Positions 30,004 to 60,900 of a DNA stretch of 64,000 bases are shown here, one piece after another. Numbering within the stretch: the stretch's first letter is position 1; every line of letters starts with the position of its first letter. The DNA is from Bilabrum cf. latius (taxonomy: Eukaryota): NCBI GenBank assembly GCA_965178125.1, contig OZ237738.1, positions 310,001 to 374,000 of the forward strand. The letters are read 5' to 3'. Both the position numbers and the translations under genes were made by a program. The notes under the pieces were generated by a model. It worked only from the letters and a program-made list of their open reading frames with translations, made no database searches and was not told the origin of the DNA.

Positions 30004-30065
<62 letters not shown>

Positions 30066-30592
30066 GTGGAGGTGCAATCAGAAGAGCCAACATCAGCTGC
30101 AGCCGGCTGTCCAACTGAACCATTCACCACTCTGCCTCTATCTGGGCGCTGCATACTCTACAGTCCCTGCACTGCCATCGCACGAGCAAGAATGCCTCGG
30201 CTAAGAGCTTCTGCGTAGGATTGAAGAACATCTTTGAGCGTGACATCACCAGCATTAGCACCAGCACCAGTACCAGCACCAGTACCAGCACCAGCACCAG
30301 CACCAGCACCAGCACCAGCACCAGCACCAGCACCAGCACCAGCACCAGCACCAGCACCAGCACCAGCACCAGCACCAGCACCAGCACCAGCACCAGCACC
30401 AGCACCAGCACCAGCACCAGCACCAGCACCAGTACTCAGCAAATTGTTCCCTGACCCGCTCGCCGTGGGGCCCCCTCCCACCCCTCCAGTATCTCCTGCA
30501 TCGGGGTGATCAGCCATGACGATGACAGAGCGAAGCGGCAGCAGCACCATCCGGCCCTGTCCCTGTCCCTGTCCCATGGCCACGTCTCCCTA

Positions 30593-30644
<52 letters not shown>

Positions 30645-31258
30645 ATGGCCACGTGTCCCTGCAGCCCCTCGAGGCACCATGCAACCAGCTTGTCGCTGCA
30701 GCTCAGGCATCGGCTGCGGCGCTCCGGAGGAATGTCGGAGCGGCCAGGCTTGAGCCTGCTTACACCCAAGGTCTGCCAATCCCTCGTGTCGGGCGGAGCC
30801 CCTGTGTTACTCGTGATTGCGGCAGCGGCGCCGGCGGCGCAAGGTTGACATTGCGGGGAGCCGGTCCAGTTGTACCTGGATGGGTCCTTCAGGAGGCGGC
30901 GCAAAGAGCAATCCCCGCATGGAGACTCACTCACTACAAAGTGCATAGAGCAGCTTTGGAGATGTTCGAACAGCTTGCTAGATCGACGGCTGCATCGCGC
31001 GAGAGCCACGACGAGCGAATGCTAGCAAAGAGCTTCAGCATGGCAGTCACTGAGCACACCGTCTTTGTGCTTAATGACTGTTTCATGACTGGGGCATCGG
31101 TTCCCGACACCTATGGCGCACACAATGGGATCTCGCCTGTCCGGATGCGTCGCGACAAGCGCGGCGAACACGCTCCAAGAATCTACGGGCACCGAGTGCC
31201 TTCCACGGAGTCTACTATAAGCTTCTAAAGAGGCATGAACGATGGCTTTATAATGCAT
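28946..31258 (-). CDS. ADAT1: tRNA-specific adenosine deaminase ADAT1/Tad1-like (A_deamin domain, no dsRBD seen) with low-complexity insertions (~770 aa)
   Basis: Motifs [55 protein letters not shown]. One frame joined through TAG at 31022, 30590, 30158, 29768, 29165. Ends TGA 28946-28948. Confidence 0.8.
30005..30064. repeat. (GCT)n microsatellite, ~20 units; encodes poly-Ser (AGC) in the ADAT1-like frame
   Basis: Pure trinucleotide run seen directly. Confidence 0.95.
30259..30432. repeat. (CACCAG)n hexamer array, ~29 units; encodes a Gly-Ala dipeptide repeat in the ADAT1-like frame
   Basis: Seen directly, with a few TACCAG variants (Gly-Thr). Confidence 0.95.
30555..30658. repeat. (CCCTGT)n hexamer arrays in a duplicated block; encodes VAM-(Gly-Gln)n twice, with one unit carrying TAG instead of CAG
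   Basis: Minus strand reads GTG GCC ATG (GGA CAG)n GGA TAG GGA GAC GTG GCC ATG (GGA CAG)3. Confidence 0.93.
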
Positions 31259-34499: not shown

Positions 34500-36392
34500 T
34501 CAGCCGTAGATCCCCCCGTCTTCCTCACCGTCCTCCCCGTCCCCCTCCTCCTCGTCGCCCCCCTCAGGCTCGAGCAAACCCACCAGCAACGCTCTGGCCC
34601 GGTCATACTTCTGGGTCAGAGCGCCCATGTCTCGCCGGAACGCTCCATCGAGCTCCTGCACCATCGTCTCCAATTCCTCCGCGCTCTTGGCCTTCAGGTC
34701 CTCCTCATCCACGGAGTAAATGTCGCGAGGCACCTTCCCGCCCGCGGAACCCTTGGGCTCCTCGCCGTGCCTGAACTGCGCCATGTACGCCGGTCGTGAG
34801 CTGGGCGCGGGCGCGTCCATGGCCGCCATCGTGCCCTGCTCCTCCGCCCCCTTCCGCCGCTGGTACGGCCCCGTGCCCACCATGACGAGGGTTCCCGGAG
34901 CCCCGCCTCCACCGCCCGATTGCCTGGGCCCCGTGCCCCAGGCCTCCTTCATCACCTTACCCTTCTAGATGACCGTCCCGTCCGCGTACTTGATCGTCTT
35001 GCCGCGCAAGGTCGCTAACTTAGACCGCAGAGTTCCAACTTTCATGGTGCCATCCGCCGCCACCTCCTGGCCAAGTCCGCCGGCACCACCTCGTGCGGCT
35101 TCGCCGTCGCCAGCACCTCCCCCTTCCTCGTCCTCCTCGGCGTCCTCCTCCAGCATCTCGGCGTCTTCCTGCCTCGCTGCGTCGATGGTGGGCAGGTGCT
35201 CCTTCACCAGGGCCTTGAGCACGTCCGACTTGCCGCCGTTCTCTTTCAGCCGCTTGGCCGCCTCGGCGCAGAAGGGGTGTTCAAGGAGCACCCTCACCTT
35301 GGTGCGGCGCTCCGGGTCCTTCTGCAGGCACTGCCGCAGGAAGTCGTTGAAGTCCTTCGACCACGCGTCGGGCGCGCGGACGGTGGGAGGCGGCTTGTTG
35401 GGGATCATGAAGAGTGCTCGCATGGGGTGCACGTCGGCGTACGGCGGCTCCCCGTCTGCCAGCTCGATCAAGGTGCAGCCAAGCGACCACACGTCGGCTG
35501 GGAAACTGTATCCGGATTCCTGAATCAGCTCTGCGGTATTGTAGAAGACATTTTACAGAAGGTCGGGGCAAGCTGGTGCTCTTTAATCCATCGATCATGC
35601 TGTCGCACAGCTCGCTATCGAGCACTGGCAGGGCGACTTTCGGATGGCGCGGGGTCCTTACCTGGTGCCATCCAGAACGGGGACCCAATGGTAGTATTTC
35701 GTTTCGAGAAGCTGTTCTGTAGCTAAGCAGACACCCCAAAATCAGCCTGCGTTCGGAAGTGGCTTGATGGTTCACGCGCTCGCACTGGGAGCAGCAATCC
35801 ACTGGATAGTTTCGTCCAATTCATCGCTATCTCACAAGCTTGGCTTCACCAGAGCTAGACAGCAATACATTGCCACATTTAAGGTCCCTATGAATGAGCT
35901 TCTTGGAGTGCAAGTACTCCAGACCCAGAAGAATCGCAGCCGTTGTCTCCTTTATCTGATCTTCGTTGAAAGTTACATCGCAAATGGCCATCAGATCTGA
36001 GGCCGATCCTGCCGCGCAGTATTCCATGACAATCTGCAGTAAAATAAATGCAATTCGCTACTGAATGGGTCAAAACGCGGGCGTGACTCTGGACTTCCAA
36101 GCATTGGCAGCGGTTCGCTTACCCAAAGATCCTGCTCCTGCACGAAAGCACCTCTGTATGACACCACAAATTTGCTGTTGCACTATTTTAGAATCTGAAT
36201 TTCCTTCACGAGCTCATCAATATCAGTTTCCAGTGGGATTACCTTGATCGCTACTTCGGCCCCCGTACCTTTCTCAACCGCGCTGTATACTTCTCCATAG
36301 GACCCTTCCCCCAGTCTCTCGACAAGGTCAAAGAGCTCCACTGGATCCTCAGTAGACACGCCAAGCCTTTCACGGGCATCATCGGAAGCCAT
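34500..36392 (-). CDS. STE20-family MST/Hippo-like Ser/Thr kinase with C-terminal SARAH-like helix (~527 aa)
   Basis: LGEGSYGEV, VAIK, EIQILK*C, IVMEYC, IHRDLKCGN, ADFGVSA*L, KRNTTIGSPFWMAPELIQE, ADVWSLG, HPMRALFMIP. Introns 36034-36122, 35747-35835, 35531-35661. TAG at 36183, 35723, 34965. Ends TGA 34500-34502. Confidence 0.93.
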
Positions 36393-38584: not shown

Positions 38585-38723
38585 TCGTGTGCTCTTAACT
38601 TGGGACGTGGTGGCTTATCGAGACGAAAATAATAAGCATACCATTTCTGTTCATCTTCGCATGTTCAAACACCGACGGTGACTGCGATCCGGATTCCGGA
38701 TTCCGGAACCCCACCATGACCAA

Positions 38724-41700
38724 TCAGCTCGCACCACCAGTCGCAGCGCCACCACTGGAGGCAGCTTCACTGCTCTCGGCATGGCCGCCACATTCCCCAG
38801 CAGGCAACTCAAAGGTGTCACAGTGCGCAGCATAGACAGCATCCTTGACGATGCTACAATCAGACTCTTGCAGCCGCTTCAGGCCCAAATTGAACACCAG
38901 CCTGCCGCCCGAGAGCAAGTTCAGCGGCGTCTGGTTGCCCAGGACCTCCATCACGACGCAATAAAGCGTCATGGTCATCTTCGGACTAAACGGTGTAGCC
39001 ACGCTCCTTGAGTCTGGCAGCTCTGCTTCAAGAAGCCAGTCCAACCACGGCGCTGCGATCGGACACATAGCGGCCACGACGGGCGTGAATAGGCCAAGCT
39101 TCTCGAGCAGCTGATACTCAGGACGGCCGTAGTACAGCTGGATCATGAGCCACCAGCTGTGGCGAACTTCAGCAAGTTGAGACCTCACTTGGTGCAGCAA
39201 GTCAGCGCCCGATGGACAAGTCGACTCAGCTGCTCCGGCACCAGAGGCTGCACCGGCCTGCCCTTCCTCATTCTCGCCATCCTTGCACAGCACCATGGCG
39301 AGAAGGGAGAGCGCCATGGGCGCATCCTGAAGCCCCTTTTCAGATGTGTACGACAGCAAACGCTGAACCAGGCTATCTCTGACCTGATCGCGAAACTCGG
39401 CATAGGAGATCCTCTTCTCGCAGACTACAAATCCTAGCGGTTCGCCAGTCTCCTTTCGGTGCTTCTCCCCGGCCTCGTGGGCAGAAATGAACGCATCCAG
39501 GTCATCAACGGCTGGCAAACACGGCAATTGTGCCCAAGCACTATCTTCACTGGCATTGCTCGAAGCCACAGCCTCTCTTGCAACTTCTGCAGCTTCGTTC
39601 AGCAAGAGCACAAGGCCTAGCATGAATGCTACAGAGCAGTCACAGAGCGCGTCCATCTGCCGCAGCCCCTCGGCCAGCAGCGGCACATAACCCAACTCAA
39701 TAGCCTAGCGCAAGTACTTGGACCTTATCGCCTTGGTCGATGCGCTCAGGGTCGCAGTCACCACCGTTACACCCGCCTGCAGCATGCACATCCAAGACGT
39801 GAGTCTTCGGTCTACTCTGGCGACAAAGAGCAAGCACCTCTGCGACAGAAGCAAACTCTACTCCAGGACTTCTTCCTTGGACAAAGTGCCTGCTACAGCG
39901 GTGATAAACTCAGAGAGGGTTGGAATCGTCTCGGCTATGTCCAAAGTGTGGGCACGATGAGCCGCGAGTGCAGTTTCGCCAGCTGCAGTGCCTCTGGCAA
40001 CCCGCGTCAAGTCAGATAGAGCTGCAAGGGATGGAGCCTCCTCGTCAAAAATACCCCTAGCAGGCGATCCAGCTAGATACTGGGACAGGCGAAGCCTGTG
40101 CATTGCAGCGTATGCGATCGGGCCGGAGACTAGCGCTCCAGGCCTGGCTGCAGCGACGCTGCTGTCATCGGTTTCACCCGCATCGCAATTTTGTGACGCA
40201 ACGCATGCGATATGAACGCCTCGCATGCCAGATTCGACATGCTAAAACATGCCAACACAAGTGCAGTCAGTAAGCTAGAACATCTTGCGAAGGAGATCGG
40301 TGCCACGAATCTTTTTCAGGACGTCCCTGTGCTCCCATGCCCCCCAGATAGCCATGCAGGACACATTAATCCAGTCCCGGTAGGCACCGCTGGCTTCTCG
40401 AGTGTGCGTTGCAGTAGTTGTCCACCGGAGGTCTGCCTCCCGAGGGCAAATCAACTCGCGAGGGACCTGATCCAGTGGTACTCCACGGGGCAACATGTCA
40501 GCCAATGACCTCGGTGCTGCTGCTGATGCGGCCTGCCGTTCAAGCCCACCAGTTTTGGGCTCTGTTCCACGAAAATTGTGGCCCCAAGCACGCTCTGAGG
40601 CAAAAATACGGTTTTCTTCGTGCAGCTGCAAGATGCGAGCATGCCTTTCATCGATTTCTCTGCATAAATCGAACTATCCTAGCCCAGCTTGCTGCCCTTC
40701 GCAGCAAGCATCTAGCAAGATCCGTCGAGTGCCAGGATCAGATAGAAACACCGCAATGAAATTCACCTGAGACAATGATACCCTGGCAGGCCAGAACAAG
40801 TCCATCACGCTCGTATCTAGCACAGTCGACCGCGAAATGCACTTGCTGAGGACGGGCACGTTTCCTGTCGCGGTGCGACCATGGGCCGAGTTACAGACCG
40901 CTAAACCATATATGGGAAGCATCGATAGTCTCACCAGAATATCGCTATTTTCAGATATCTGCACATCATGCGTGCGGGCACTTGCGTCCTCTAGGCTAGC
41001 GAAGAGCCCCCTTGGAATCGTTGCAAAGTAGCTCTATGGATCATCGCTGGGGCCGCATCCAATGGCGTACCTTGCAAACTGAACTGCAAAAAACCCAACC
41101 TACTTTGGATCTGACTCGGCCATAGCAAAGTTGTCTCTGATCTGTTCAAGAAGTATGCGTATTTCGGTGTCCGCATCTGCTCCCCCACCATGCGACATGT
41201 CAGGCTTCTCCTTGGTCGCTTGGATCCATCGGTCCGCTGACTCTACGAATTGAGCGATTGCTTTCGCCACTGGCTCCATAGCAAGACCCAGCCTGTCAAT
41301 TTTCTCATCATCCGCCGAATCGACGATTCCGCGAAGCTCAGCAGCCGCCCGTTGTAGGGCGCCCCCACGAGCGTCGTACTCATCCCGCGCAGCCAACGAC
41401 GCCCTGAATGACCCCATGAGCAACCTCAGAAGTCGATACATTCGGGATCGTTCAAATCTGCATTGCATCAAGCTCGTTACAAAATACGCGAGCATATGCC
41501 AATCCGCAAGACCAATAATGGCCGCCTGACCGACAGCGTGTGCCATCTGGTCTGATGTTTCAACGCCAATACCCGGCAAAGCAAGTCTTGAGCAGCCCAT
41601 CGCAGCCAACTGGTAGATTCTCTGTCGGAGCAGCTCCGGCTTTGTGGGTCCCAGGTCAATCTGGTCAAGGAAGGACTCGGACATGTCCACGCCTGGCTTC

Positions 41701-44700
41701 CAGGCTTGAGCAGATCCTTTGAGTACCTCTAGCTTCGCAAGCAGTGGAGCCAGCGCTTCCTACTCGATTTCTGAGTTCTCTAAGACAGCTGCAATGCTCT
41801 CCAACCCAGTGGATACCTGCCCCAGCTGCTCAGCAGTCGAGGCAAGCAGGCGATCCAAATTGGACGATCTCAACGTTTCTAAGGTTGCCAAGCCGGGATC
41901 GGTGCATTCGCCTGCGCCAATGCCCCTGAACGGCATCAAGTCTGTGATGATCCACTAGAATACCTCCGGGTTGCACGAAGGGTGTAGGAGAGTCGCATTC
42001 ATTCTAAACTGGCGGCAGGCATCCGCAGCTGCATCCGGAGAAAGCTCACGGAGCGAGTTGAGATAAGCAGCCGTAATCTTGTGAAGCCGACTCCTGCCAG
42101 GACCGTTGAACGTGTCCGCCCACGCTAGCCTCCGCAACGGAATGCCAATAATCCTCCTGCGGTCAGTTTCAACCCCACTCGTAGTGTATGCGTCGACTAC
42201 AGCCATATACAAAGCCTGGCGCATGATAGGAGGGGCAATAGATCCGAATACAACCGGTCCATCCGTGCTTGTGCTGGAGGATGCACCTTCAGCTGTTGGC
42301 CCTCCAAGAAGCGAGTTCACCTGAATTTCAAGCCACTGCTGGACAGGCAATCCGAGGCAACGCTCTGACACGGTCCCCCAGCGCTCATGCAGAGATACTA
42401 GCTCGTGGCTGCATGCCTCACTTATGCCCCAGCTTAAGGACTCGTCCGACGGCCCTCGTCCGCACCTCGACGAAAACTCTCTCACCGCCGTAGACTCCGG
42501 GGGCAATCCGACTGGCGAATTCAGGAAGAACATCATTAGAGCAAATGCCTGGAAGCTGGGGAGACCCTCGGCCTCACCGAGCATCCACACAGCCTCCGCG
42601 AACTCAGGAGCTGCTAGCCTACACTGTGAGGGCATCTCGCCGCTCTTCATTAGGTCCTTGACCTGGCCAATCATCCTTGCAAGTGGCTTAGATACGGCAC
42701 CGGCAAGCTCCTTTGTCATTGGCAGTGTGGAAGCGCCCAATTTAGCTGTGCTTGCAGAAGACCTGCCTGCGTCGGCAAGCCTTGCGGCTGCCTCGAAAGC
42801 GTGCATGGCTGCCAAGTCCAAAGCACAAGCATCCTTTCCCTGATCACGCACCAGGACCTGAGGCCTCCGACCTGGCTTGAGATGCGGCAATGCCATTGCC
42901 GTGAGCTGCACCGACCGCGATGCCTTGATGCAGTCTTCTACAGTGGCCAGTTCGCCAACCTGAGCACCGATATTGACAGCAATGTGCTGTTTACCAGCCT
43001 CTTTGCTGATGAAGTCTTCAGGGTCCATGAATCCGCCGCAGTCAAACCCGTGCTCCAACAATACCGAATCGATTGCTTCAGCAGGCTCGGGGATGCCAAG
43101 CTCTGTGCCTGCCTCGGCTTCTTGCTCCATCTACTAAAGCTCAGCTTCGGGTAATTCGGGCGCGTACATGCCCATGACCGTGTTAACAGCGTGCTGATGC
43201 ACTAGCTATGTGTTGCGGTAGGCTGCCTCTACTGTTGCTTCAAGACTTGCACACAGGTCCACTTCAGAACCAATGAATGCGGTCAGCGGCCGCATCACGG
43301 GGTCATCTGCGCCGACAGAAACTCCTTCAGGCATGTCAGCGAGGGGGGACTCGCTTGTTCCAAGGTAGCAAATGGCCCGAGACCGAGCTACAGCGGAAAA
43401 TTCCACCATTTGGCTGACGACATGCTGCAGCTGCTGCAAGACAAGGAAACGCACAAGGCTGGGCCTTTCATTGTGAAAAAAATGGGGAGGCGATGCAGAC
43501 ATTGAGACCACTACCGTAGGCCGACCGATCCATCGGACGTGGACACGAATCTCAAGCGGCGACATGAGATTCGCCATTGCTACAGCTATACCACACGTGA
43601 AGTAGCCAGGACCGGTCATGCCCTCACGTGCTTGCAAGCGTGAAGCAAGTCCAGCGAGGGACAAACCAGCCTAAATTCCTTTCATTATACTTCCATGCAC
43701 CTCGATAGATCTCTATAGAAGTGCGTGAGCATGGGATCCCCGACTGACATCTGCTTGGAGCACCTTGCGGTTGGTTGCGGCTGTGGTTCGTCGCTAGGTA
43801 GCCACGATCCACGCTTGCAGAGTCCTCATCGCCTACGCAGCATCCATATCGCCTGCAAAGATCAGAGCGAGTACGCCTCTCAATGGCTCAACACGCTCTA
43901 ACACGCGGGCAAAGCCTCGATGAAGCTATCTCCGATCTGCGTATAGTTCAACTGAATCTGTCAGAGTGATAGAGTCCGCACCTACCTCTGCTAGAGGCGG
44001 AAATCCACCTTCGACTGGGCTATTCGCTGCACAAAGCACCAGTATTACTGCCAGCTTGGCCTCGACTCCTGCGGGCCAGCCACTCTTGTAGAGAGTCACA
44101 GCTATCTGGTGCCGTGGATACTAGTCCAAATCACGAGAGCTTCCTAAAGGACTTGTCTAAAGCGTTAACGCATCGCTGGCCTGAAAATTTAGCTTGCCAG
44201 TCCGACGCAAACCAGATTCCGTGCTTGGGATGTTCCCAGCATCCCAGTGAGGCGGGAGCTTTGCAGCGGTTGAAGTCTAGCTGAACCATCCAGGCCTCAC
44301 CCGAACACTTCCTTTTCCGGCTGCACACCATTGCATCTGGTAGCAGTTGGATGACTACTATGCGCTGCATGCGGCTGATGTTCTAGGCAATGAATCACTC
44401 CACCGATACTACGGCGGGCGGTACGGCTTGTCGGGACCAGTGGAGCCTGCTGGATCTCCCGACAACTGCAGCAACATCCTCTAGCAAACAGGGATAAACT
44501 CGGGAAGCTCCATGCCGCAAACCTAAAGTGATGGAATCCTGCTCCACTCCCTTGCCAGGCTCGCTGGCTCCTCACCATCAGGAGAAGGGTTTTTACCAAG
44601 CCAGACGATACCGCCAGCGTCCTGCACGTCAGCGGGGCCACATGACAGCGCAGCGTCGACAAGGTCAGCGAAAACGGGTGGACTGATCTCATTACTTTGC

Positions 44701-47700
44701 ACCACATGCTGTGAAAAAGACATGATCTAGCCAGAGACGCCTACCGCAAGAGACAATTCTGCAAAATCCATCAGCTGCTCGAACGAGCAGCACTCCAGAG
44801 GAGCCTATGCAAGAAGCTAGCACTCGTCCAGCAAAGTCGAGGCAGCATCTTTGTCTACATCGGTTGAGTCTAGAATTGCCAACAAATACTCAGCAACTCG
44901 AACGCTCGAAGATGCAGCCGGCAAGTCCGCTGGCTCGTCAACCGGAATTTGAAACCGTAAGGTCTTCGAGGCTGCGCCCAGCTTTCCGACTTCAGGAAGT
45001 TGCGAGCTGTTTTGGCCAGAAAGACTGCTCAAGGTACAGCAGGCTCGCATCATAAATGCCTGCGAGGTGTACCCTCGCTTGCCTCGGCCTTCTGCGTCTG
45101 GAGCATTCCATGAACACCCCAACTAGCTCATCCAGTCCACGTACGGTGCTTCGCCGTCCGGCATGCGTTCAACTGGATTCTCCAAACCGTTGATAGGTCC
45201 TTCCGAGGGGTGCACTTGAAAGTACAGACCCGATTGTTTGATCGCTGGGTGCATGAATCCGCTTTTTCGGTCCTCAAACGTACCCCGAAGAACACCGACG
45301 GCGAATCGGCTGATCAGCGTACTTACGCTGATACCAACGACCGCTGAAACTTGCGCAGATTCGACGCCAAAGCTGCTGAAATCCATTGGAGCAACATTGA
45401 GTAGCTGCATGGCAATTTGCCACTCGATCGATTCGTACACGTCTGCACGATGCGCTAGCGTTCGGAGAGCAGCTGCAAATGTTGCGTCTGCTGGCAATTC
45501 TGGGCTTACATCAGAGCCCATCATCGCCGCGAAACCAGCAATCTCAGCCCTGAAGTCTGGTGCTATTTCAGCAGCACTCTCCAAAGAGTCTGCTACGTGC
45601 ATATCACCAGCACCTGCTCCTGATGCTGCTGCCCTCCCACCCCGACCCATTGCACCCGAAAGACGAGCCGACTCAAGCTTGGACGCAGCGTCTGCCTCAG
45701 ATTTGCTGCTACCGCTCAGGCATGCCCGCGCGGATGCCATATTCACTACGCGATATAGCCGTGATTCTAGGGGCACCTGCCTTTCGGCTACGTCAAGTTC
45801 CAGAAGCAGAGAAATGGCCAAGCCAATCGTCTCGGCCTGCTGCTCAGGTATGTACGGTCGATGCATCCGCGCTCGGTATTTAGACGCGTGTTCCTCTGGA
45901 TTCTAGATCGCCACCGAGTTCAGCTGCAAGTCAAGAGCTAGCATCGTCATTGCAAGGGCACTGCGAAGCATGCCAGTCCTGTGGCCCATGGCTTCGCTAG
46001 GTACGACGGCAGTTGGCTTCCTCGACGATTCGTACCTGCTCTTCGCCTCTCTTGCCAGCTGGTCTGCCCTGCTATCATCATCGCCAAGCATTACTGCAGC
46101 GGGGACTCGCACGTCCTTTCCCGCGGGAATGTGAAGGCTCGCATCCCCTCTTGCAGAGCGGCATGCTTCTCTGTAGCTCCTTCGCGCGGCTCGAGCTGCC
46201 ACGAGCAAAGCACTGCAGTGCTGCTAACCGTGAAGCTGCGCACTGTTTAGGCCATCTACAGCAACCCATGATCGCCATGGAGAACCATCGTGTCCTTCTG
46301 TTCGCTCCAAAATGCCTGAAATTGTATCGATGTGCGTCCCAGAGTTGCACACTTGCCCAACACCAAGGCTGCTTGCGTCATTCCAAGTAGACCTGGCATA
46401 CTCCTCCGAGACTGGTGCATCCGCATCGATCTTGCACTTCTCGAGGCCTTCGGCTACAAACACTTCCAAGGGCTGCGCAAGAGCCTCAATTGAGCGCTAG
46501 CACGCAGCAAGGGACGCCGAAGGAGAGGGAGCAAGCAGGCCCATGACCTCAAAGAGGCGGGACTTCATCTCGGACATAATCCAAAGTGGAGGCTGCGAGC
46601 TTGCAGCCATTTCAACGAGCTGAGCACTCGTTGGGCGGCCTGTGGACCATGAAATTGCAATGCTGTCCTAGCTAGTCGATGGGCGTGGAAGGTCAAGGCA
46701 CAAAAAGCCTGTCTCAGCCGCAAACACGTCTTCTCCAACCACGCGGTCGAAGGCGCGCAAGCCAGCGTAGAAGCCATCGTAATGCCTCGCATGCAATTTT
46801 GTACAAGCTTGGAGACATTCTGCTACTTCGGCAACTAGTGCAGCTGCAGTCTCCGTTTCACGAACGCCAAAATATTTCCCGTGAGGCGATGCTGGATAGT
46901 CCTAGGCTCCGCAACGAGCCAGAGTCAAAGCGAGCTCAAGTCGAGAGGAAGCACTCTCAAGGCTACCTCGTCCGTGCAAAGCATCGCAACAGGCTGCTAT
47001 TTCCACTTGCAGCTGTACCTTAGCTTTAATTAGGTCATCATTTATTGTCGGGAAGCATTGGTCCACTTGAATCATCGCGGCCAACCTCAATGGGTGCCTA
47101 GGACCGAGGGTTGCTGTTGCTATGGAGAGAGCGACCAAAGATGCCTACAATGCAGTGTTTAGGGGCACATCATCAGGCTATGGCTCAGCTAGACTCTACG
47201 CCCGTGCAGCAGGAAGCAACGAAAGCATGCCACCTTTGTACAGCTCTTGCATATTGCTGGGGCCACTGGCCTTGGGAATGGACACTGCGCGAAGCCTCGC
47301 TTCCACGTCGTGGGCTGGGAGACACGATAACTCGCCTGGGCATCTGGAAGGCAACCTAGCTTCGGAATCATCAAGCGGTCGTCGAGAAGAGGTGATCTGT
47401 ATACTACGCAGCGCCTCCTGCATCGACAGCGGTTGCCCATGCCTATCGTCCTTCTCCACGTGGGATTGTAACGCAGCGAGAGATGCAGCCGCATGCCGGC
47501 AAGCGTGAATCTCGCCATGCAAACTCAGAGAGAGTCTCAAAGGATCGCTTGCATCGCCTAGTTCAGGCAATAGTGCATCCGAAGATAACATCTTTTCTCG
47601 AGACAAACGAGCGATGCCGCTGTCGTCAAACACAAATGGCGAATTTGCCACGGACTTTCCGAGTGTTCGCTGCAGGCCAGAGAGCCAACTCTACGCCTTT

Positions 47701-50700
47701 AGTCGGCTCTTAAGAAGCGACTCAGAATCGCTGATGGCCTCCGGCTTGTGACGAGCCACCAACGCAATAAACTGAATCCCGGCAGCTCGCACCCACCTCG
47801 AGACGTAGTCCCGATCCTCCATCCGTTGCTACCTTCGCCTCGCCGCGAAACTGTCAGGGCTCTGCTGTGGGGCCACGCACACATTTGAGAATTGGTTGAC
47901 TACTTCGCGTAGCTCTGGGCCGCAAATTTGACCTTCCTTGCGCAAGTATCGCGCCAGCTGCAGCAAGAGCGACACTGTGGTGTGTGGGTTGCTGGACTTT
48001 GGGGGTGCCACATGCAGCAAGGCTTCACGAATAATCCGAACGGCTGTCGGAGTGGCTCCAAGTCTGGCGTACACGTCGGCATGCGCAGCCAGGAAAGCCA
48101 CAGACAGACCACTGTGGTCAGCCGGGACGGCGCTGTGGAGCTTTGACTCGAAGGCGCCCTCACTTTCTGCTAGCGACTCCAGTGCTTGGTTAACACGGGG
48201 GTCTACGACCGTGGATTTTGATGTTTGATGCCCAGGAAACGGAGCACCGCATCGCAAAAGGAGGGGGTTGGCAAGTTGGGCCCCCAGCGGCGTTGAAATC
48301 TGCTCTAGGCTAGTCTAGGTTGCGGCCTCAGGTGCCCGGTCCATCTGCAAATGAAGTGCAATCATGGTGTGGTTAACTTCAGAGGCAAACGTAGACAACG
48401 GAGCACTGCTGAGCAAGCCAGTGCTAGGATATGTCTCATACGTGTGCATGATATCGGCTGCCACTCGCAGGTTGCGTGGATGGTATACCAGGACTGAGCG
48501 ATGCTTCCACGGCTTCATCTCGAATGAGGGTGACAGCTGCTGAGCGCCGTAGTCGGCAAACACGAGATCTGCATCGATACCCAGCTCTTTGCCGCATGGT
48601 GACTCTGCAGCTTCTAGAATTAAAGCAGCAGCTGCTGCCTCTATCGGAATTGCGTCAAATGCCGCTTGCTTGTCAGCGACGACGTCAAGCACGTCCTTTC
48701 CGTTCTTCTTTTCGAGCGCCTTGCGCAGCAGAGGAAAGTAATGGCCGTCAACAAGGTCTAGCGCAGAAAGAGCCTCCAATTGTCTGGGAGTAAGCGACTC
48801 GATAGCACCAGCTTGGACTTCAGACCGCCCAGGGAGGTCTGGAGCCAACGATGGAAGCGGTGGTGCTTCTGGAGAGCCATCGCTGTTCAGCAGCCTGCTG
48901 TTCCCAACGAAGGCAAACCGTAGCACTTCTTGGCGCTGCTGAGAGAGGCAGAATGCATGCAGCAGCCTCTGCCGGTTTTCTGCCACCTAAGCGGGAGAAA
49001 AGGCGACTTGAACCGGCAGGCCGTGCTCGTCCTTCGTCTTTCCTCCTATCTCGCCGGCATGTAGCCTGACGAAGTGGACGTCATTAGAGTTCATTTCCTC
49101 GAGCACTGCGTCCTATTCTGTTGGGTACAAGTAGGACGCCGGTGCTCCTGGCTTTTCTCCAGCAAACATTCCAGCCAGTCCACCCATGCTCCCGACCGGC
49201 ATGCCTCCTGCCTCACGCATGGAAGCCCTGCTCGCTTCCAGTTGTTGCAGGCGCTAAAGAATAGCTGCCGGCGGGGCTGATAGCTGCCCTGAATCTTCAG
49301 ATAGAGGGTGTGGCTTGGCTCCAGGCATGTACTTAGCATCTGGAAGGAACCGTCGAGTCCCGATACGAGCCAGCTGGTTTGAAGCGGTGCGATCCAGGTA
49401 CTGCTAGAGCTCCCTGGAGGGCTCGCAGTCCATCCTACGCAGGATGTCGCGGCAGAGCAAGCGGCCATGGAGAATGGACCGCGGGTCGAATCCAGGCTCC
49501 TGCTCATCCTTGTCCAGGCTACAAACGCTTGATGCCTCCGCCAGATTATGACAGTCATACATGGCAGCAATAGCATGCTTTAGGGTGTGTGACCAGAACT
49601 CGGATGGGGTGATCAGCCCGCCAAGCACCTTCGTGCAAAGCGCTTCGTCGGCAGCAGAATCTAACCCTCGTCCCATGCCCAGCTGCCTGAGCAACTCGGC
49701 TATGCGGCCGCTCGCGCCGGCCTTGCCCGTTGCCTCCCGCGCCAACATATATGAGACGGGACCGAGAGTAGCCGGGTCCCTCTTGTTGTCGTCCAGCTCA
49801 AATAACCAGTACATTGCCTGCATTGCGGCCTCCTCCGATCGCTCCATGATCTGCAGCACTATCTCGTCTGGAACGTCCATACAACCTGCTGGTGACACCG
49901 CGCGCTGCTCGGCCATCAGGTGGTCGACAGCAAACTGTTTGATGCAGCTCTCAGGTGATTGTACCGCAGAAAGGACACTAGGGTGGGGTCCCACTCCCCC
50001 CCACTCATTGATAGGATGCTCGAATGCGAGCGACTTCTCGAGCCTGGCACGCACTCGCAGAACCTCGTCATCCTCCGTCGGTGGATCGCAGGACCCGGCC
50101 CCCGATGCAGCACCACCACCGCTGGTACTGGCACTAGCAGCAGCCACAGACTCCTCGTGGTCGGCTGCGCTACCGCTCACGTCTAAATCACTGCTTTTAG
50201 CCGCGCTGATCTCTTCTTTGAGTCGCGCAAGTAGGCCAGGGTGACGACGCTGAACGGCCTCCCAGGCAGATTCCCGCGTTGCCTTACGCTGCCGGGGGAG
50301 TTTCCAGAACGGCATTCCCCAGGCCTCTCGCATGCCTTCCTGCAGCGCCTTGCGCTTGGCCTCCTCATTCAGGCCCAGCGTCTCCCGAGCAGCCCGCACT
50401 TGCCTCCGCATCTCTGTCCGGGACACCTCGATGCACACCTCGGCCAGCAATTCGGCCACCATGGCACGCAGTATTGTCATTCGCACGTGCGGTTTCACGC
50501 ACTATGAACGAACCAAGCCCATATAGCGGACTGGCAGCCCGAACTTTCGCAGTATGCGAAACACAAAATCGGTGGTGTGGTTGGCAGAGGGCATGGCTTC
50601 GAAGGTGCGGGCTGCCAGGCACACAGCGAGGGTGATGAGGCGCTTCCGACGCGGGGCCAAGCCCTCGTCGAACTTGTCGCACTCTTCATCGTTCTTCTTC

Positions 50701-51954
50701 TACTCGTCACTGCCGTCTGGATGCAAGCGCCACGGGTGTGCGAATGCCTCGTGGAGCGGGTGCGAGGGCGTGTCTCGGATGTACTCCGTTGCGGTCTTGT
50801 TGATACCCCTGGGCACTGCGTAGAGATCCGTGAGCTCCTTCAGCGCAGCTTTGCAGGATGCAATCGGGCTTGCACGACCGTACACGCTGGCCTTCTTAGC
50901 GGCACCCGGACCGGCGGCAGCGCCAGCACCGCTGCTGGCGCCTGCCTTGGATCCTCTGGCTGGCGGCATGTCTGGCTCGCCGGAAGAACCCTCATCGTCC
51001 TTTTCCAGCTTCTGCTTGGTGATAAGCATGCAGAATGCCCTTGCCTCCACCTCTTCGAGGCCGTACTCTCCCAGATTGGGTAGCGCGCCGTGAACCCTCA
51101 TGTGCGCAAGCTAGTCCAGGATGATGGCAAGGTCAACTTGCTGCCTGTCTTTGTGCAGCAGCCCGCATGCACGCGTAAAAATTGGATCCTCTGGGATGAG
51201 GCTGCTCGCAGTCAGCGTCCTCTTGGCTCCGGATTGCGTGTCTGCCACAAGGACGCGCCGGTCTGCCCTTGAGCTGTTGTAGAGCAGGCTCCTTGAGACC
51301 GAGGCGAGCTCTCGGAGAGTGCTCTTTCCTACATCTGAGCTTATAAACGCATGGCGTGCTCGCTCTGACCACGGCATCGGATGCCCTGCGTGCTGGCCGC
51401 AGGTTGCGAACGTGTCAACGCCTGGAGCCTCGACCAGTGTTGCGGAAACCATTGGCACGGGAAATTTGAAGCACTCAGAGAGCAGCAGCTGCGTCTTAGG
51501 GACTGCTGGTTGACAAAGTGCCCCACACGATGATATGCCTGCGACGAATTACTTCAAGTGAGGTGATCAATGCCAGTACTCCAATCAGAATGGTACTGCA
51601 ACATAGTTCCAGGGCAAGCCAACAACTCACGGAGCTTTTCTTGCGCCATCTTGCTCCGGACCTCGTACAATGGCGCGTTTAATGAGAATAACGCCAATCC
51701 AGATCCCTGCAGTGCTTGGGCAAGCGGTGAAGCCGCAAATTAGCTGGGAAGCATCAAGATCTCAGTGACAGCCAGCCTGGTTCGAGTCTCACTTTATAGC
51801 AAACACCACCCTGAGTTCGACCTTTGCTTGCTCCAAGCAGTTCAAGACATATAATGTCGTACATACTGTCCCTTGACTAGGTCGTTGCTTCCATAATGAG
51901 TCGCCCCGCTGTGCGACCCAACTCCGATGGATCCAGGACCTCCCCTTCCACCAT
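38724..51954 (-). CDS. Giant protein (~4,350 aa) with divergent Clu (clueless/TIF31)-like N-terminal part and TPR-like helical repeats
   Basis: Nineteen listed minus-strand ORFs between 38724 and 51458 are in one frame. Every internal ORF end is TAG and the gaps contain only TAG (~48 in total). Ends TGA 38724-38726. Introns 51707-51792 and 51539-51630 are phase-consistent. The Clu-like call rests on weak resemblance (RKFGLPVRYMGLVRS*C..VRMTILRAMVAE; ATLGPRHP), so the product is less certain than the gene. Confidence 0.72.
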
Positions 51955-53881: not shown

Positions 53882-54008
53882 CATGATTTCGGCCTAAATT
53901 AGTACAGTACTGCAAACCAATTGTGGCGGCGGATCAGTCAAGTATCAAAGCAATTTTGTGAAGGGATATAGATGCTAACCGATGAAACTTCTTTCTTGTG
54001 CCCTTGCC

Positions 54009-55655
54009 TTAACACTCCGAATGCCCAGCGTCTTGCATGACGATGAAGCCGATTCCCAGAGCAGGCATGCTAAACGGCTCGTCGGCGGGGCGCCGACGCG
54101 GAGACAGATCTGGCAGCGACCCATCAGGCAGCAAGTGCAGGTCTGGGCCATCATTCAGAGCCGCGAATCGGGCCTCGCGAGGATCCCTCTGGGTCGCATC
54201 CACACTTGGTGTCAGCAACCACTCAAGCCAATCTGTGTCCTTCAGCCCTTTAGAGGTGGCCTTCACTGCTTCGCCCCCGCCATCCACTTGGATTTGTACG
54301 GTTTCAGTCAACGTGTTCAGCAGCATCAAGGTCACAGATCCCTTATTGTAGCCCCCCGCAGGAGCCCTGCCGCCACCGGAGCAGAAGGCATAGGCCAAGA
54401 CCGGGGGTTCCCCGTCCCCTCGTGCAAATTGCTGCCCACTCATGGACACCGAGGCTCTCAGCACGGAGGCCCCCGCGGTCATCTTGAATAGAATGCTCAC
54501 CCAGTAGTCGACTGCGACTGGATATGGCGCTGAATCGGGACCGGCATGGACCGCAGGTTGCACGAAACCAAAGTGCTGCGAGTACAGGTTCCACCTTGAA
54601 TGCATCCTTAGCCCAGCTGCCGACGTCTGGCCGAGAGAAGCAACGTAGAAGAACGCGTTGGCGAACCCGACCATGTCTGGTCCGTCCATGTCGTAGCACG
54701 AGTTAGTCTCTGTCAGCTGCAGCGCCACACCGGCTTGCTGCAGCCCAGTGCTCTGCCACTGGCGCCAGCACTCGCTGGCGTTGGCATGCAGGTCATTCAG
54801 CCACACAGACTGTCGCAGCCACGTTGAACTAAACATTTCTTCGTAGTACTGCGAATGGTTCTTGCACGTACGGGCGGGGTACGAGTGGTAGTTAAAGGCT
54901 TGCAGGAACGGCCTCGTGCCTTCCATAAACGCCGCTGAGGTCTCGTCGCACATGTCAGTGGAGGGCCCTTGCAGCTCCGGCCGGCTAGCATTGCTGGTTG
55001 TGCCGGTGCCCCAAACTGAATCAAAGACCTTGCTAAGCTCCAGATAGTCGCGAATATTCGTCGACATGTTGATGTGTAGAGATCGGGTGAGCTCGTTTCC
55101 CATCTCCACGCCCTGCAATCGGCCTGAGCTTGCCCGTTCAGGATGGTCGTGGAACCATTCGAGCAAATACTTGGTGTTCGTTGAGTCCCACGAACCACTG
55201 CAAGTCCAATTCTACGGACCTCCGCACTTTCTCCCGTACAGCTCGTTCACATCGAAAACGAGATCAAAACCCGACGACTCCGTGAAGTTCAGCAATACAT
55301 TCATGTCGGAGCTGCTGAAAATCTTGTCTCTGTACGGCCAGTAGCTCTGCAGCTGCGCCTTACTGCCGCCAGAATCTCCCAGCGAATAGTTCGTCCAATC
55401 CCCGGATATACCTCCAACACGAAAGAATGCCGGAGATAGAGACGACGCGACTTTCTGGAAGATTGGGTTACTCAGCGTACTGGTTGTGCTTAGAAAGCTG
55501 TACATCTCTTCGCCAATGGAAACGAAGCGCGGGTCCAGATGTGCGATTTTTTTGCCAACTGCAACTGCAGCCCGCCGGTGAGCCGATGCAGGGCTGGATG
55601 GGCGCGGTTCAGACGCCGCAGCAGCACACACTACAAGAGTCAATAATGCTAGCAT
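54009..55655 (-). CDS. Secreted/lysosomal glycoside hydrolase family 79 (heparanase-like beta-glucuronidase), 548 aa
   Basis: Signal peptide MLALLTLVVCAAAAS. Motifs LDPRFVS, LSPAFFRVGG, GFDLVFDVNEL, GSWDSTN, EMGNE (acid/base), NYHSY, LTETNS (nucleophile), DYWVSILFK, AYAFC, FSMPALGIGFIV...C. One TAG at 55212. Ends TAA 54009-54011. Confidence 0.88.
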
Positions 55656-55773: not shown

Positions 55774-57470
55774 ATGAATGGCGGAGCTAAAGCCTGGATA
55801 GCAGCCATCATATCAGTATGCATGTCTGGCGAGGTCGCTGGCTCAAGGCCAAACCTCGTGTACGTACTGATGGACGATACGGATGTCATGTTGGGATCTG
55901 ATAAAATGCTGAAGAAAGGCCGAGAACTGGTGGCAGACGAAGGAGCTCTATTTGAACAGGTGTGATAAGTCAATTTTTCGTCTGAATTTCCTCGACCCTG
56001 CGATGTTGGGACGGATACTACATTGTTGGCTCCGAGCTTGCTGCCATTTCGCAGTTTCGAACGCTGTCGCCAAAATGCACCCCAAGCCGGACCGGATAGC
56101 TGGCCGGGCGCCACTACCACAATGTGCGTCCAAATGGAGGAAGTGGCGGAGATCCGCCAGGGACGGGAAGAGGCCTGAACCAAACAACGATGTTCGAGCC
56201 AGATGCACTTTTTCCCATGCTCCACTCCAACGGATACTGGACCTCTATCGTCGGCAAGGTCCACAACGACCAGGCGAGCTTTTTGTGCAAGCCAAAGAAC
56301 GACACTGCCCCCTTCACGCACGTCCACACGGCGTGCAGGCCGTGCGGTGGCTACTGGCGCACGCAGTACACGGTCAAGCAGGTCGGCGAGAGCGTCCCCC
56401 GCCTCGTGGAGCTGAACGCGACAGACTGGAGCACCTACTCCGAGGGTCAGTTCGGTAATGCCTCCATTAAGTTCATGCGAGAAGCAGTGGCGGCGAAGCA
56501 GCCTTTCTTCGCCTACATTGGCACGACGGGTCCGCACCTCCCGTCCATCCCGGCGCCCTGGCACCTACCCGAGGTCAACAGCTGGAATGTGACCGCACCG
56601 CGACTCCCAAACTTCAACCAGCACTACCCCGATCACCACCCAATGGTTGCCGATGCCCCGGTGGTTGATCCTGACAAGGTTCATTTCATGGACGAGCACT
56701 ACCGCGACCGGCTAGGCACGCTGCTCTCCATCGACGACCTCATCGCCAACGTGGTCCACGAGCTAGAGTCCCTCGGGGTCCTTGACAATACTTATATCAT
56801 CGTTTCTTCCGACCATGGCTATCACATCGGCAATTGGCGCATTCCCATGGAGAAGATGTGGCCCTACGAAACAGACATCCGCATCCCGGCCTACATGCGC
56901 GGACCAGGCATTCCCGCAGGACAGCGCATTCGCTCAATGGCAATGAACCTCGACATCCTGCCCACATTCCTGGACCTGGCGGGCATTCCATTGTCTCCGG
57001 AGTACGACGGACGCAGCCTTGTACCTCTTGTGAAGGGCTCGGAGGCTGAGCGCAAGGCAGCCGCGGACGGATGGCGCACGCGCACTGTGATCGCATTCGC
57101 CGAGGGAGCCACTCAGGAGTGGGGTCACACTTCAATCTCAAACGGGACGATCTCCGACCCGTAGAGTACTTCGGTGCCACCGCTCAAGTCGGACTCTGGC
57201 AAGACATACCTCTTCGATGACCCGGCCAACCAGTGGAGAATGCTGAGAGTGGCCAATACCTCCCACAACGTGTCGTACGTCGAGTGGGACCCGGTGTTCC
57301 TCTTCGAGAAGATCGCTTTCCATGCCTTCTATGATCTGAACAAGGATCCGTACGAGCAGGAGAACCTGTACCAGCAGCTGCCCACGGACCAGCAGCGCAT
57401 CTGGCACGAGGAGCTGGATCGCGAGTTTACTTGCCGCGGTCATCACGGGACTCGAACGGACTGCTCCTGA
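55774..57470 (+). CDS. Secreted/lysosomal Cys-type (formylglycine) sulfatase, N-acetylglucosamine-6-sulfatase-like (~533 aa)
   Basis: Signal peptide. Motifs RPNLVYVLMDD, CTPSRTG*LAGRHYHN, GYWTSIVGKVHN, GPHLP, TLLSIDD, LDNTYIIVSSDHGYHIG, KMWPYETDIRIP, NLDILPTFLDLAG, FYDLNKDPYEQENL. Intron 55960-56054. TAG at 56097 and 57162. Ends TGA 57468-57470. Confidence 0.9.
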
Positions 57471-57995: not shown

Positions 57996-60900
57996 TCACA
58001 CGCTTGCCCCGGCATCCGCGGCGGCGGCCCCTCCCTTGGCCGCTGCAGCTGCCTTGGCCGCTGTCCGCCTGGCAGCCATCGAGGACTTCTGGTCCTTTCG
58101 CAGTCCCCGGAGGCCCTGGGCCCTGCCGAACTTGGCGGAAGTGGTGCTGGAGCCCGCACCAGATCGGCTGGCAGCCATAGGGTTGACCACCTGGCTGCCT
58201 GCGCCGCGACCCATTACGGCAGCATCAGACCCAGCATGAGTTCGCTGGGGCGCAAATGCCATGCCAGACTTCCTTCGGGGCGCCTTCGATCCCCGCCCCT
58301 CGCTCTGTGCCTTGGCTTGCTCCTCTGATTGCATGGCAGCCAGCCGGTCAACCCGAAGCGCCTCGTTGTCGTCTAGCACGCCCTGCACCAGCTCCCTCAC
58401 GTTATCCCATTGTCCCGGTGCTGGAGGCTAGCCTCCGTTTAGGATCTCCGTCAGGGTCAGCCCACCGACGCTGCGTGTCGCGGCAGGATCCACGGAACCG
58501 GCGTCCAGAGAGCGCATGCTAGCCTTGGCAACGAGCGGGTTGTTGTGGAACTGGGTCTGGGCATCAGCGTCGCCGTCTCTGCCTGACTCTGGTGCGAATC
58601 CAGCAGCAGTACCCGCGCCCATTTGGAAGTCTCCATCCTTGGTGACGCCTGCTTTGCGAGCGGTCTTGCCCTGCTTCACACCAGCCATTGTCTTCTCCTC
58701 CCGGCGCTTCTTCTGCTCCTCCGTCTCGCCGAAGCAGTTTGCGGCTGCTTCGGGCTGGAAGACGATGAAGATCTCGATGAACACCACCGAAAGCCAGTAC
58801 ACGATCGAGCTGAAGATGATCAGCAGCGCAAGGTACGTGAGGGTGTCACGCTCCACGGTGTTCTGACCCGATGAGGCGAAACGGTCGCTCTCGAACATGA
58901 GGCCAGACAGGCACAGGAGCACAGCGCAGAACAGCAGCGTGCTCTCAAGTCCGTTGTACGACAGGAAGTACAGACTGGCAGAGGAAATCATGTGATTGGC
59001 CTGCTTCTGAGCCTCTGCAGCGGACCAGCCATTGCCGCCTGCCGGTGCCGAACGGACACGGTTGCGACGCATTTGGTCGCGATGCTGGGCTTCGATCTTG
59101 GCGTGCATGTCAGAATACCGGGCCTTGATGGCATGCTCCTCCAGCACCAGCTTGTGGTCGCTGGGTGACATGTAGGGCTCGTGCTTGGTCTGCAGCGTGT
59201 ACCCGATGAACAGCACGAGCAGACTCATGGCCAGCTGGTAGGACGGGACAGTAGCGAACATGAGGCTGGTCAGCGCCAGTGCGAACTTGCGGGCGAAAAG
59301 CACCAGTATCCAGTACCACTTGCCAGGCTTGAAGAACTGGTACATGCGCGAGAACTTCTTGCGGAACTCGTACCCATCGTTGCCAAGACGCTCCCTGGTC
59401 TCGGGCTCGTCGCGAGCACGGGACAGCTGGTCGCGCTTGACCATTTTCTTGTTGCTCCAAAGCAAGTACCCGATGAACACTGGGAACGCGATAATGTACA
59501 CGATCAATGCGATGATGGCGAAGGGCAGCAGTGTCAGGTGCGTCCCACCGGCCTCGTAGCACTCGATGTCAGTCTGGCCGCCCATGTACCTGGCCGTGTC
59601 AGGGTTGCTGCCATCCTCGCCCACGATGCGCTGGCAGTTGAACACGTCCAGAGTGAAGCGAGACAGCATCAGGTCTGCGATTTGTGGCGGGGGCAAACAA
59701 ACAAATTCAAAGGATAGCATGAGATGCAAGTACTAGCAGGCTTCTAGCCGAAATGGGCCAATCACGAGATAGGATGCAACAAGGGAGAGGACTCACAAGC
59801 CACGTATCCGAACACCAGGAGCACGGAGATCAGCTGAGGAAGGTGGCCGTTCAAGTTGGTCGTGTGGCCAAGCACGCAACGCTTGTACACGAGCTTGGCA
59901 ACGTGAAGGATACCGAAGAAGACAGCCACCAGCAGCGGCAGAACCATGAACGCGAACCACTTGCCCTGGTAAGCGAGCGACGGCACCACGCACTCCGGAG
60001 CCGTAAGCTCGATGTTGAGGTTGAAGGCGGACATGATCTGGAACATCTGCCGGATCAGCTCGGGCCAGGCGATGCGAGCAGAGGCGAAGATCGCAAGCAC
60101 CTGGAAGTAGTCGATTCCGATCTGCGAGATGGTAGCGGCACAAGGACAAAATTGAATGGGAAGTATGCTAAATATACAAGAAGCAAGGACGATACGACGA
60201 GGAGATCAAAGCGCTAGCTCACGCTGATGAATGCCAGGTTCACGTTCTTGGAGTTGAGCACGTACGCAGCGCCACCAGCCACGCATGCGGCAGCGATCAG
60301 GGCAAGGAACAGCAGCCATGGGTTGTCCGGGCACTCCTCGCAGAAGCCGTTGATGCGGTAGTGCGTGCCCTCTGCGCAAGAGGCGCAGCGCACACCCTCG
60401 TACCCATCAGCACACACGTTGTTGCCCAGGCAAGCCTCGGCGGGCTGGCAAGCCACGAACTCTGAGCAGTTGGTGCGCGTGAAGCGGCGCTCGGGGTGGC
60501 AGCGGGCGCTCGGCTGCCAAGTCCACACTTCATTCTCAGGGTTGGCCTCGTCGGGCGCGAAGAAGCCGTTCTAGTGGGTAAGTCGGAACCAGCCCTCGAT
60601 GGCGTAGGGCTCGTCCAGGCGACCGGGGCACTCGGCACCATCGGGGCACTGCAGGCAGTACTCTCCGTCCTGTCCGTAGTAGTCCTTGGCGCACATGAGC
60701 TGCAGCCGGATGCGGTAATCGCGCTCTTCGAAGTGACTCGTCTAGCCTGCCACAGTCACGGTCAGATTCTTGTGGCCCGCGCGATGCCTTGGCAGTGAGC
60801 AGGTCAGCTCGTCATCGGCCTGCCACTCGGCGTCTACGCACTCAAGCCCGCCCACGTTGATGCTGACGGGCGTCTCGGTCACACCAAAGTTGATGCCCAA

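Follow-up and report, generated by a model that had tools for sequence, protein, structure and literature searches.

UAG as a probable glutamine codon, with UAA and UGA kept as stops, in a GC-rich 64-kb stretch of eukaryotic DNA

We analyzed the use of UAA, UAG, and UGA in a 64,000-nucleotide (nt) stretch of DNA deposited as Bilabrum cf. latius (GenBank assembly GCA_965178125.1, contig OZ237738.1, positions 310,001 to 374,000), here called the window, with particular attention to a heparanase-like GH79 gene that ends in TAA. The GC content of the window is 0.55 to 0.67, and large genes are densely packed on both strands. Long frames named by Pfam encode an IPT/TIG-cadherin protein, filamin repeats preceded by laminin-type EGF repeats, an LRR protein, a HECT ligase, and an MIT-domain protein, as well as an ADAT/ADAR-type deaminase, katanin p80, an MST/STE20 kinase, an FAD synthase (PAPS reductase fold), GH79, and a sulfatase. 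The GH79 coding sequence (54009..55655, minus strand; Pfam PF03662, E = 6.5e-10) is a single exon of 548 codons plus the stop. It begins with ATG at 55653-55655, contains one in-frame TAG (55212-55214), and ends with TAA at 54009..54011 (TTA on the plus strand), directly after GFIVMQDAGHSEC, so that the protein terminates with ...GHSEC. The explanation that best covers the data as a whole, and which we hold with good confidence, is that the window comes from the nuclear genome of a GC-rich, intron-poor eukaryote whose cytoplasmic code is of the NCBI table 15 type: UAG specifies glutamine (Gln), and UAA and UGA are stops.

Long open reading frames (ORFs) depend on TAG being read through. With TAA and TGA as the only stops, ORFs of at least 200 codons totaled 38,482 codons, compared to 18,559 with the three standard stops. 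The longest ORF under standard stops had 979 codons, and once TAG was read through there were ORFs of 4,275, 3,903, and 2,188 codons. When TAA was freed instead of TAG, ORFs of at least 200 codons totaled 21,494 codons, and the longest still had 979. We counted in-frame triplets in 16 coding segments (17,368 codons). Where a gene pair is duplicated, only one copy was counted, and neither the short exons of the kinase gene nor gene starts that were uncertain were included. TAG occurred 115 times and TAA and TGA not at all. The two zeros follow from construction, since the segments were defined as open under TAA and TGA stops; the real evidence is the existence of frames thousands of codons long that are reached only when TAG is read. 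Because these frames open only in that way and Pfam identifies most of them, TAG is read as an amino acid. In-frame TAGs are found in the kinase, sulfatase, GH79, FAD synthase, and ADAT genes, and contigs of RNA type retain every TAG that they cover.

The RNA-type contigs also revealed a small number of short introns. Stretches of 92, 86, 105, and 95 nt at GT..AG sites (51539-51630, 51707-51792, 52605-52709, and 55960-56054, respectively) are skipped in contigs of run X6 and partly in those of runs X7 and X8, the third stretch lying in the FAD synthase gene on the plus strand. In a DNA-type contig of run X1, the same four stretches are not skipped. The spliced contigs, which we take to be RNA derived, differ from the window at a single position (a C>G at 45636, seen in a contig of run X7 with a depth of 2.5), and on this reading the TAGs are present in mRNA in unedited form. 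This result bears on the idea that no in-frame TAG is itself translated, the triplets instead being edited to CAG in RNA or representing assembly errors or pseudogene lesions, which we considered since most of the evidence linking TAG to Gln consists of a C/T difference. No point in support of it was found. Besides the persistence of the genomic TAGs in spliced contigs of all three runs, decay does not leave 115 lesions that all belong to a single one of the three stop triplets in frames running to thousands of codons, and relatives bear TAG at other positions in the same genes. We regard the probability of this explanation as negligible.

Judging from the residues that it faces in related sequences, TAG very probably encodes Gln. 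In the MST/Hippo-type kinase gene (minus strand), the TAG of exon 1 (36183..36185) faces the Q of ...IMQQCDS in human STK4/STK3, and the TAG of the activation segment (35723..35725) faces the Q of DFGVAGQL in the same proteins, both in all five alignments shown. Homologues of the sulfatase (plus strand) were obtained from a search of 1.84 billion representatives. The TAG at site 38 (56097..56099) lies in the motif CTPSRTG-x-L, where all four of the nearest homologues covering the motif have Q (P0006, P0012, P0048, and P0057; 49 to 58% identical) and where L001, the contig encoding P0007, has CAG. The TAG at codon 393 of the sulfatase ORF (57162..57164) is covered by six homologues: the residue is Q in P0007 (CAG in L001) and P0009, and A, S, N, and S in P0006, P0013, P0050, and P0054. 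In the ADAT1-like gene, eight GGA CAG units are followed by GGA TAG and farther on by three more GGA CAG units (30533..30658, minus strand), placing the TAG (30590-30592) in a Gln slot. A TAG in a transmembrane (TM) protein gene, TM2 (58428..58430, minus strand), is CAG in L001 and AAG in the paralogue TM1 (8190-8192). Across the four window TAGs compared with L001, the relative has CAG at three sites and GAC at one.

Codon usage points in the same direction. The share of TAG among CAG, CAA, and TAG codons drops with rising GC content at third codon positions (GC3; Spearman rho = -0.77, P = 0.0013, 14 genes). The pattern is that of a lower-GC synonym of CAG, and the share of CAA likewise falls with GC3. 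Leucine (Leu) was initially suggested by one PDB alignment, in which the CxPSR+3 site of the sulfatase is Ile, and was dropped after the kinase and the nearest sulfatases gave Gln. Gln fits, and Leu or serine (Ser) does not, because of the kinase Q sites, the Q in four of four nearest sulfatases, and the CAG at three of the four sites in L001. The TAG at codon 888 of the HECT gene lies outside the aligned blocks and gives no information on the residue.

A single-protein locus search from P0007 returned 80 loci, among which L001 was the only close relative; the other 79 were at 23 to 31% identity. L001 shares 84% amino acid identity with the window in the sulfatase and has six in-frame TAGs, and its sulfatase and TM genes end in TGA. 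In its sulfatase gene, the conserved tail (...ELEREFGCKGHYGKATDCS) comes after a TAG located 27 codons before the stop. Because L001 bears in-frame TAGs of its own and a conserved tail follows one of them, the code is common to a small clade that is already in public data, where its proteins show up as shortened gene calls. The fragment P0005 (97% identical) ends exactly one residue before the window TAG at 57162-57164, as a standard-code call would. Miscut gene calls have thus already occurred, given that P0005 and P0007 are fragmentary in the database. Positions 1-4682 of L001 hold the same GH79/sulfatase/TM neighborhood as the window, but rearranged or misassembled. Its GH79 gene is split across the two contig ends with overlapping sequence, and the C-terminal part runs into a TM-gene fragment; the last ~64 residues are missing, so L001 offers no view of the TAA end.

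Unlike TAG, TAA is not used as a sense codon within the window. The off-frames of the 16 segments contain 56 and 74 TAA triplets (and 299 and 407 TGA), and the point of the TAA counts is that very long frames are free of a triplet seen about 65 times per off-frame. At the CAA/CAG ratio (162:429), 43 in-frame TAA codons would be expected (probability of zero, ~1e-19), and even with the strongest bias toward G, that of TTA/TTG (46:256), our arithmetic yields about 21. An earlier examination of the window without database searches (hereafter the sequence-only reading) had reported no in-frame TAA in any coding frame. This held for all 17,368 codons, although one TAA had been missed: at 20689-20691 (minus strand), lying in frame in the gap that separates the EGF and filamin ORFs of one giant gene. 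Judged from its sequence, this TAA is probably intronic. It falls within a 159-nt stretch (20616..20774, minus strand; GTGAGC...CTCTCGCAG) whose boundaries resemble those of the four RNA-supported introns, all of which end in GCAG. The GC3 of the stretch is 0.52, compared to 0.75 and 0.78 in its flanks, and its excision would connect ...GTQAC and VSCAVHDPRCSEC... without a frame shift. A TAA is also present in every one of the four RNA-supported introns, whose GC content (0.42 to 0.56) is lower than that of most coding DNA. With the EGF/filamin stretch included, the five introns measure 86 to 159 nt, start with GTGAG, GTAAG, or GTGTG, and end in GCAG (CGCAG in four, TGCAG in one).

At the end of GH79, the evidence bears directly on whether UAA is a stop. 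Four homologues (33 to 44% identity, query coverage of 91 to 93%) align with its C terminus. All five aligned sequences share the last Cys, and the four homologues extend 1, 3, 6, and 7 residues beyond it, which bears out the claim of the sequence-only reading that the TAA stands where family proteins end. Human heparanase also ends one residue after Cys. An X6 contig (53979-55670) is unspliced and colinear over the TAA, with no differences from the window; since it spans the TAA without a splice joint, no intron removes this codon. UAA terminates at least one expressed, conserved gene.

Under a different explanation, UAA and UAG would both be reassigned, as in table 6 or with a dual-function UAA like that of Blastocrithidia, and GH79 would continue for 24 residues to the next in-frame stop, a TGA 25 codons on (53934..53936, minus strand). 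The lack of TAA in coding sequence would then reflect its avoidance under GC pressure. TAA is the rarest of the three stop triplets in the window (390, versus 991 TAG and 1,692 TGA, both strands), only a single TAA end is available, and the GH79 ORF is open for 24 codons past it. However, a tail of 24 extra residues is present in none of the four homologues, all of which end no more than 7 residues from the aligned Cys, and in the 60 nt downstream of the TAA the GC content falls to 0.42, as it does after other stops. In addition, there is no in-frame TAA codon where the A/G ratios of other codon pairs that end in a purine predict 21 to 43, and CAA, the analogous A-ending Gln codon, occurs 162 times. 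Joint reassignment is therefore highly improbable. With no in-frame TAA in 17,368 codons and a TAA ending GH79, the code is not table 6 (UAR as Gln); these results and the 115 in-frame TAGs agree with the sequence-only reading that UAA and UAG are decoupled.

The 14 gene ends in the window comprise 13 TGA, one TAA, and no TAG, so that UGA indeed dominates termination. The sequence-only reading had counted 13 genes, 12 of them ending in TGA. These figures stand when one copy of the duplication is dropped (13 independent genes, 12 TGA and one TAA) and fall short by one when every end is counted. It had also suggested that the UGA bias may reflect GC pressure or weaker termination at UAA, of which only the first is needed. 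The off-frame TAA:TGA ratio (130:706; 15.6% TAA) predicts about two TAA among 13 stops, and the probability of observing at most one is 0.38. Because this ratio predicts the UGA excess, GC-biased composition suffices for it, and the excess therefore gives no hint of weak UAA termination.

Homologues fix three of the gene ends. Besides the TAA of GH79, these are the TGA of the HECT ligase (24301..24303, minus strand), right after GFGLA, which aligns to the last residues of HUWE1 HECT chains, and the TGA of the sulfatase (57468..57470, plus strand), right after ...TDCS; the aligned ...DCS is likewise the end of P0006 and P0054, and L001 also has TGA. In this small sample, ambiguous stop/sense use of the kind known from Condylostoma, karyorelicts, and Blastocrithidia was not observed: neither TAA nor TGA occurs in frame, and no TAG stands at an end that homologues fix.

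Several observations count against the interpretation of UAG as Gln and UAA as a stop. The six TAGs of L001 face AGG (twice), GAC, TGG, TCG, and only once CAG in the window. TAG sites in the FAD synthase face L and E of the human enzyme, the ADAT site faces R of ADAR2, the GH79 site faces Y, N, G, and G in homologues, and site 38 is occupied by W, I, L, F, or T in sulfatases that are less closely related. These non-Gln sites lie at variable positions, and Gln is the only residue that recurs. The evidence for UAA as a stop comes from one locus, a sample of one, together with the lack of in-frame TAA, and the intron around the TAA at 20689-20691 is inferred from its sequence. The RNA nature of X6 to X8 is a guess of the tool combined with our reasoning from the GT..AG joints absent in X1. 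No run is recorded as RNA, and since these are assembled contigs, transcript ends, strand, and expression level are not readable from them.

A further observation of this kind concerns the positions of some TAGs. Three genes have TAG 10 to 26 codons upstream of their TGA (10 and 12 codons in unk576, 22 in the MIT gene, and 26 in the filamin gene), and their C termini have no homologue anchor, so that a TAG stop is possible in them. Such a pattern could mean that UAG is context dependent, as in Condylostoma and karyorelicts, being sense inside genes and a stop near mRNA 3' ends, and that some of the TGA-ended genes really end at an upstream TAG. From the overall rate of 115 TAGs in 17,368 codons, however, about 2 of 14 genes are predicted by our arithmetic to have a TAG in their last 26 codons, close to the three observed. 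None of the three homologue-fixed ends is a TAG, and the conserved sulfatase tail beyond a TAG in L001 argues against position-dependent termination. We consider context dependence unlikely, with only a slim chance of being correct.

The separation of UAG from UAA has precedents. Before 2017, UAA and UAG were believed to shift meaning only jointly, and Pánek et al. (2017; PMC5304391) were the first to show that the two can be decoupled. In that study, Iotanema spirale (Fornicata) reads UAG as Gln and stops at UAA and UGA, with UAA as the primary stop and a T32G change in the GTS motif of eRF1, and the rhizarian exLh reads UAG as Leu, with 56 UAA and 15 UGA stops. I. spirale matches the window in that UAG alone has become Gln, UAA is kept as a stop, and the inference comes from UAG at conserved Gln sites. 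It differs in having UAA as the main stop and in being transcriptome based, whereas the window is genomic DNA with a GC content of 0.55 to 0.67, short GT..AG introns, and UGA at 13 of 14 ends.

Further cases are described by McGowan et al. (2024; PMC11687900). The phyllopharyngean ciliates Hartmannula sinica and Trochilia petrani read UAG as Gln, with 93.5 to 100% of C-terminal alignments on UAA, and in Protocruzia tuzeti, too, only UAG is reassigned to Gln; in these three species, UAG was judged not also to be a stop. The window resembles these lineages in reading UAG as Gln with UAA unreassigned, but in Hartmannula and Trochilia nearly all C-terminal alignments end at UAA, whereas the window is long multigene DNA with high GC content in which UGA is dominant. 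The same authors report UAG as Leu in TARA ciliate metagenome-assembled genomes and cite UAG as Ser in Scotinosphaera. The rhizarian exLh and Scotinosphaera share with the window the decoupling of UAG from UAA and the use of UAA and UGA as stops; the amino acid differs (Leu and Ser). NCBI table 15 ("Blepharisma nuclei; some phages: TAG=Q") is formally the same code, and the window genes translate cleanly under it. The table is a formal description and not a lineage, and nothing here ties the organism to ciliates. Table 6 (ciliate, dasycladacean, and hexamitin) has UAG as Gln in common with the window but differs by UAA as Gln, which was not encountered there. In searched full texts, which excluded most subscription journals and the supplements of PMC5304391 and PMC11687900, we found no GC-rich or UGA-dominant lineage with a UAG-only reassignment.

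A code of this type would require changes in both decoding and termination. By analogy with known cases, UAG would be decoded by a tRNA-Gln with the anticodon CUA, which pairs with UAG and not UAA and which probably arose by one anticodon change from tRNA-Gln(CUG). Pánek et al. predicted a tRNA-Gln(CUA) for such a code, but their data were transcriptomes, in which the gene could not be sought for their two organisms (PMC5304391). Recognition of a third-position G that follows UA may, again by analogy, have been lost or weakened in the N domain of eRF1, with UAA and UGA still accepted; the sequence-only reading had likewise proposed that eRF1 must reject UAG, and an eRF1 change is the standard expectation for such codes (PMC5304391). 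The preference for UGA over UAA reflects GC-biased composition and carries no information on the quality of UAA termination. Rfam found no RNA families in the window, no tRNA was found in L001, and no eRF1 gene was present among the Pfam-scanned window frames. ARAGORN called a tRNA-Gly(CCC) at 9871-9947 (minus strand), with no Rfam tRNA at the gathering threshold; because it lies within a filamin-repeat coding exon and lacks Rfam support, it is probably a false positive.

The UAG-only reassignment to Gln is of a kind already known; the features that set the present case apart are the high GC content, the long multigene DNA interrupted by spliceosomal introns, and the predominance of UGA among the stops. 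To our knowledge, published cases of UAG as Gln concern AT-leaning organisms whose stops are mainly UAA, and a GC-rich, UGA-stopping organism would provide a contrast against which to ask what changes in eRF1 and tRNA such a code needs. The chances are about evenly balanced that the window represents a GC-rich, intron-poor, undescribed eukaryotic lineage, with at least two more members in public data (97% and 84% protein identity), in which the code arose independently of fornicates and ciliates and that this lineage is the first of its kind with UGA as the main terminator. If so, its eRF1 would be a natural variant that refuses UAG and is efficient on UGA and UAA, and the tRNA-Gln(CUA) gene predicted by Pánek et al. 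would be present in its genome. Each added lineage that splits the two codons indicates that the termination and decoding machinery can tell UAA from UAG. In practical terms, standard-code annotation of this genome and its relatives cuts genes at every TAG, and we advise reannotation under table 15.

One giant gene in the window is an orphan (38724-51800, minus strand), which is expressed, exceeds 4,270 codons, and has no Pfam domain. Its last exon (38724..51537) spans 4,270 codons, with 47 in-frame TAGs and no TAA, and ends in TGA at 38724-38726. RNA-type contigs covering 38662-45638 and 45652-51537 show no differences from the window, and two introns are spliced at the 5' end. The whole-length protein had no homologue at E ≤ 0.001 among 1,548 candidates of 2,350 to 7,480 amino acids, and because no homologue matched, the 47 TAG sites are not usable for codon meaning. 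The TAG density of this gene, 11 per 1,000 codons, is the highest among the large genes. The filamin-repeat giant gene likewise ends in TGA; its last exon (8980..20615, minus strand) has ~3,876 codons and 27 in-frame TAGs.

The two ends of the window carry an inverted duplication (2620-8580 versus 64000-58052; 96.4% identity over 5,970 nt), which contains a TIG/DUF7630 receptor-like gene and a multipass TM gene. All four TAGs of the shared TIG part are kept in both copies. The C termini of the two TM proteins have diverged, with 71 of 599 amino acids differing. In a protein atlas, the TM protein fell among TRP channel-like clusters of mixed taxa with recognition below the threshold, and we inferred no lineage from it.

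The FAD synthase and GH79 genes are convergent, with 127 nt separating their stops (53881-54009). RNA-type contigs end 16 to 62 nt past four of the five covered stops and 222 nt past that of the sulfatase, a pattern suggestive of very short 3' untranslated regions, although contigs are no proof of transcript ends. Past the GH79 TAA, the contigs end variously at 53979, 53939, and 53897, and we draw nothing from these positions. The MIT-domain gene ends with tandem stops, TGA followed by TAA (27843-27848, minus strand). The ADAT1-like deaminase domain (29900-30700, minus strand) is split by long low-complexity runs of (GQ)n, (GA)n, and poly-Ser, encoded by microsatellite-like repeats.

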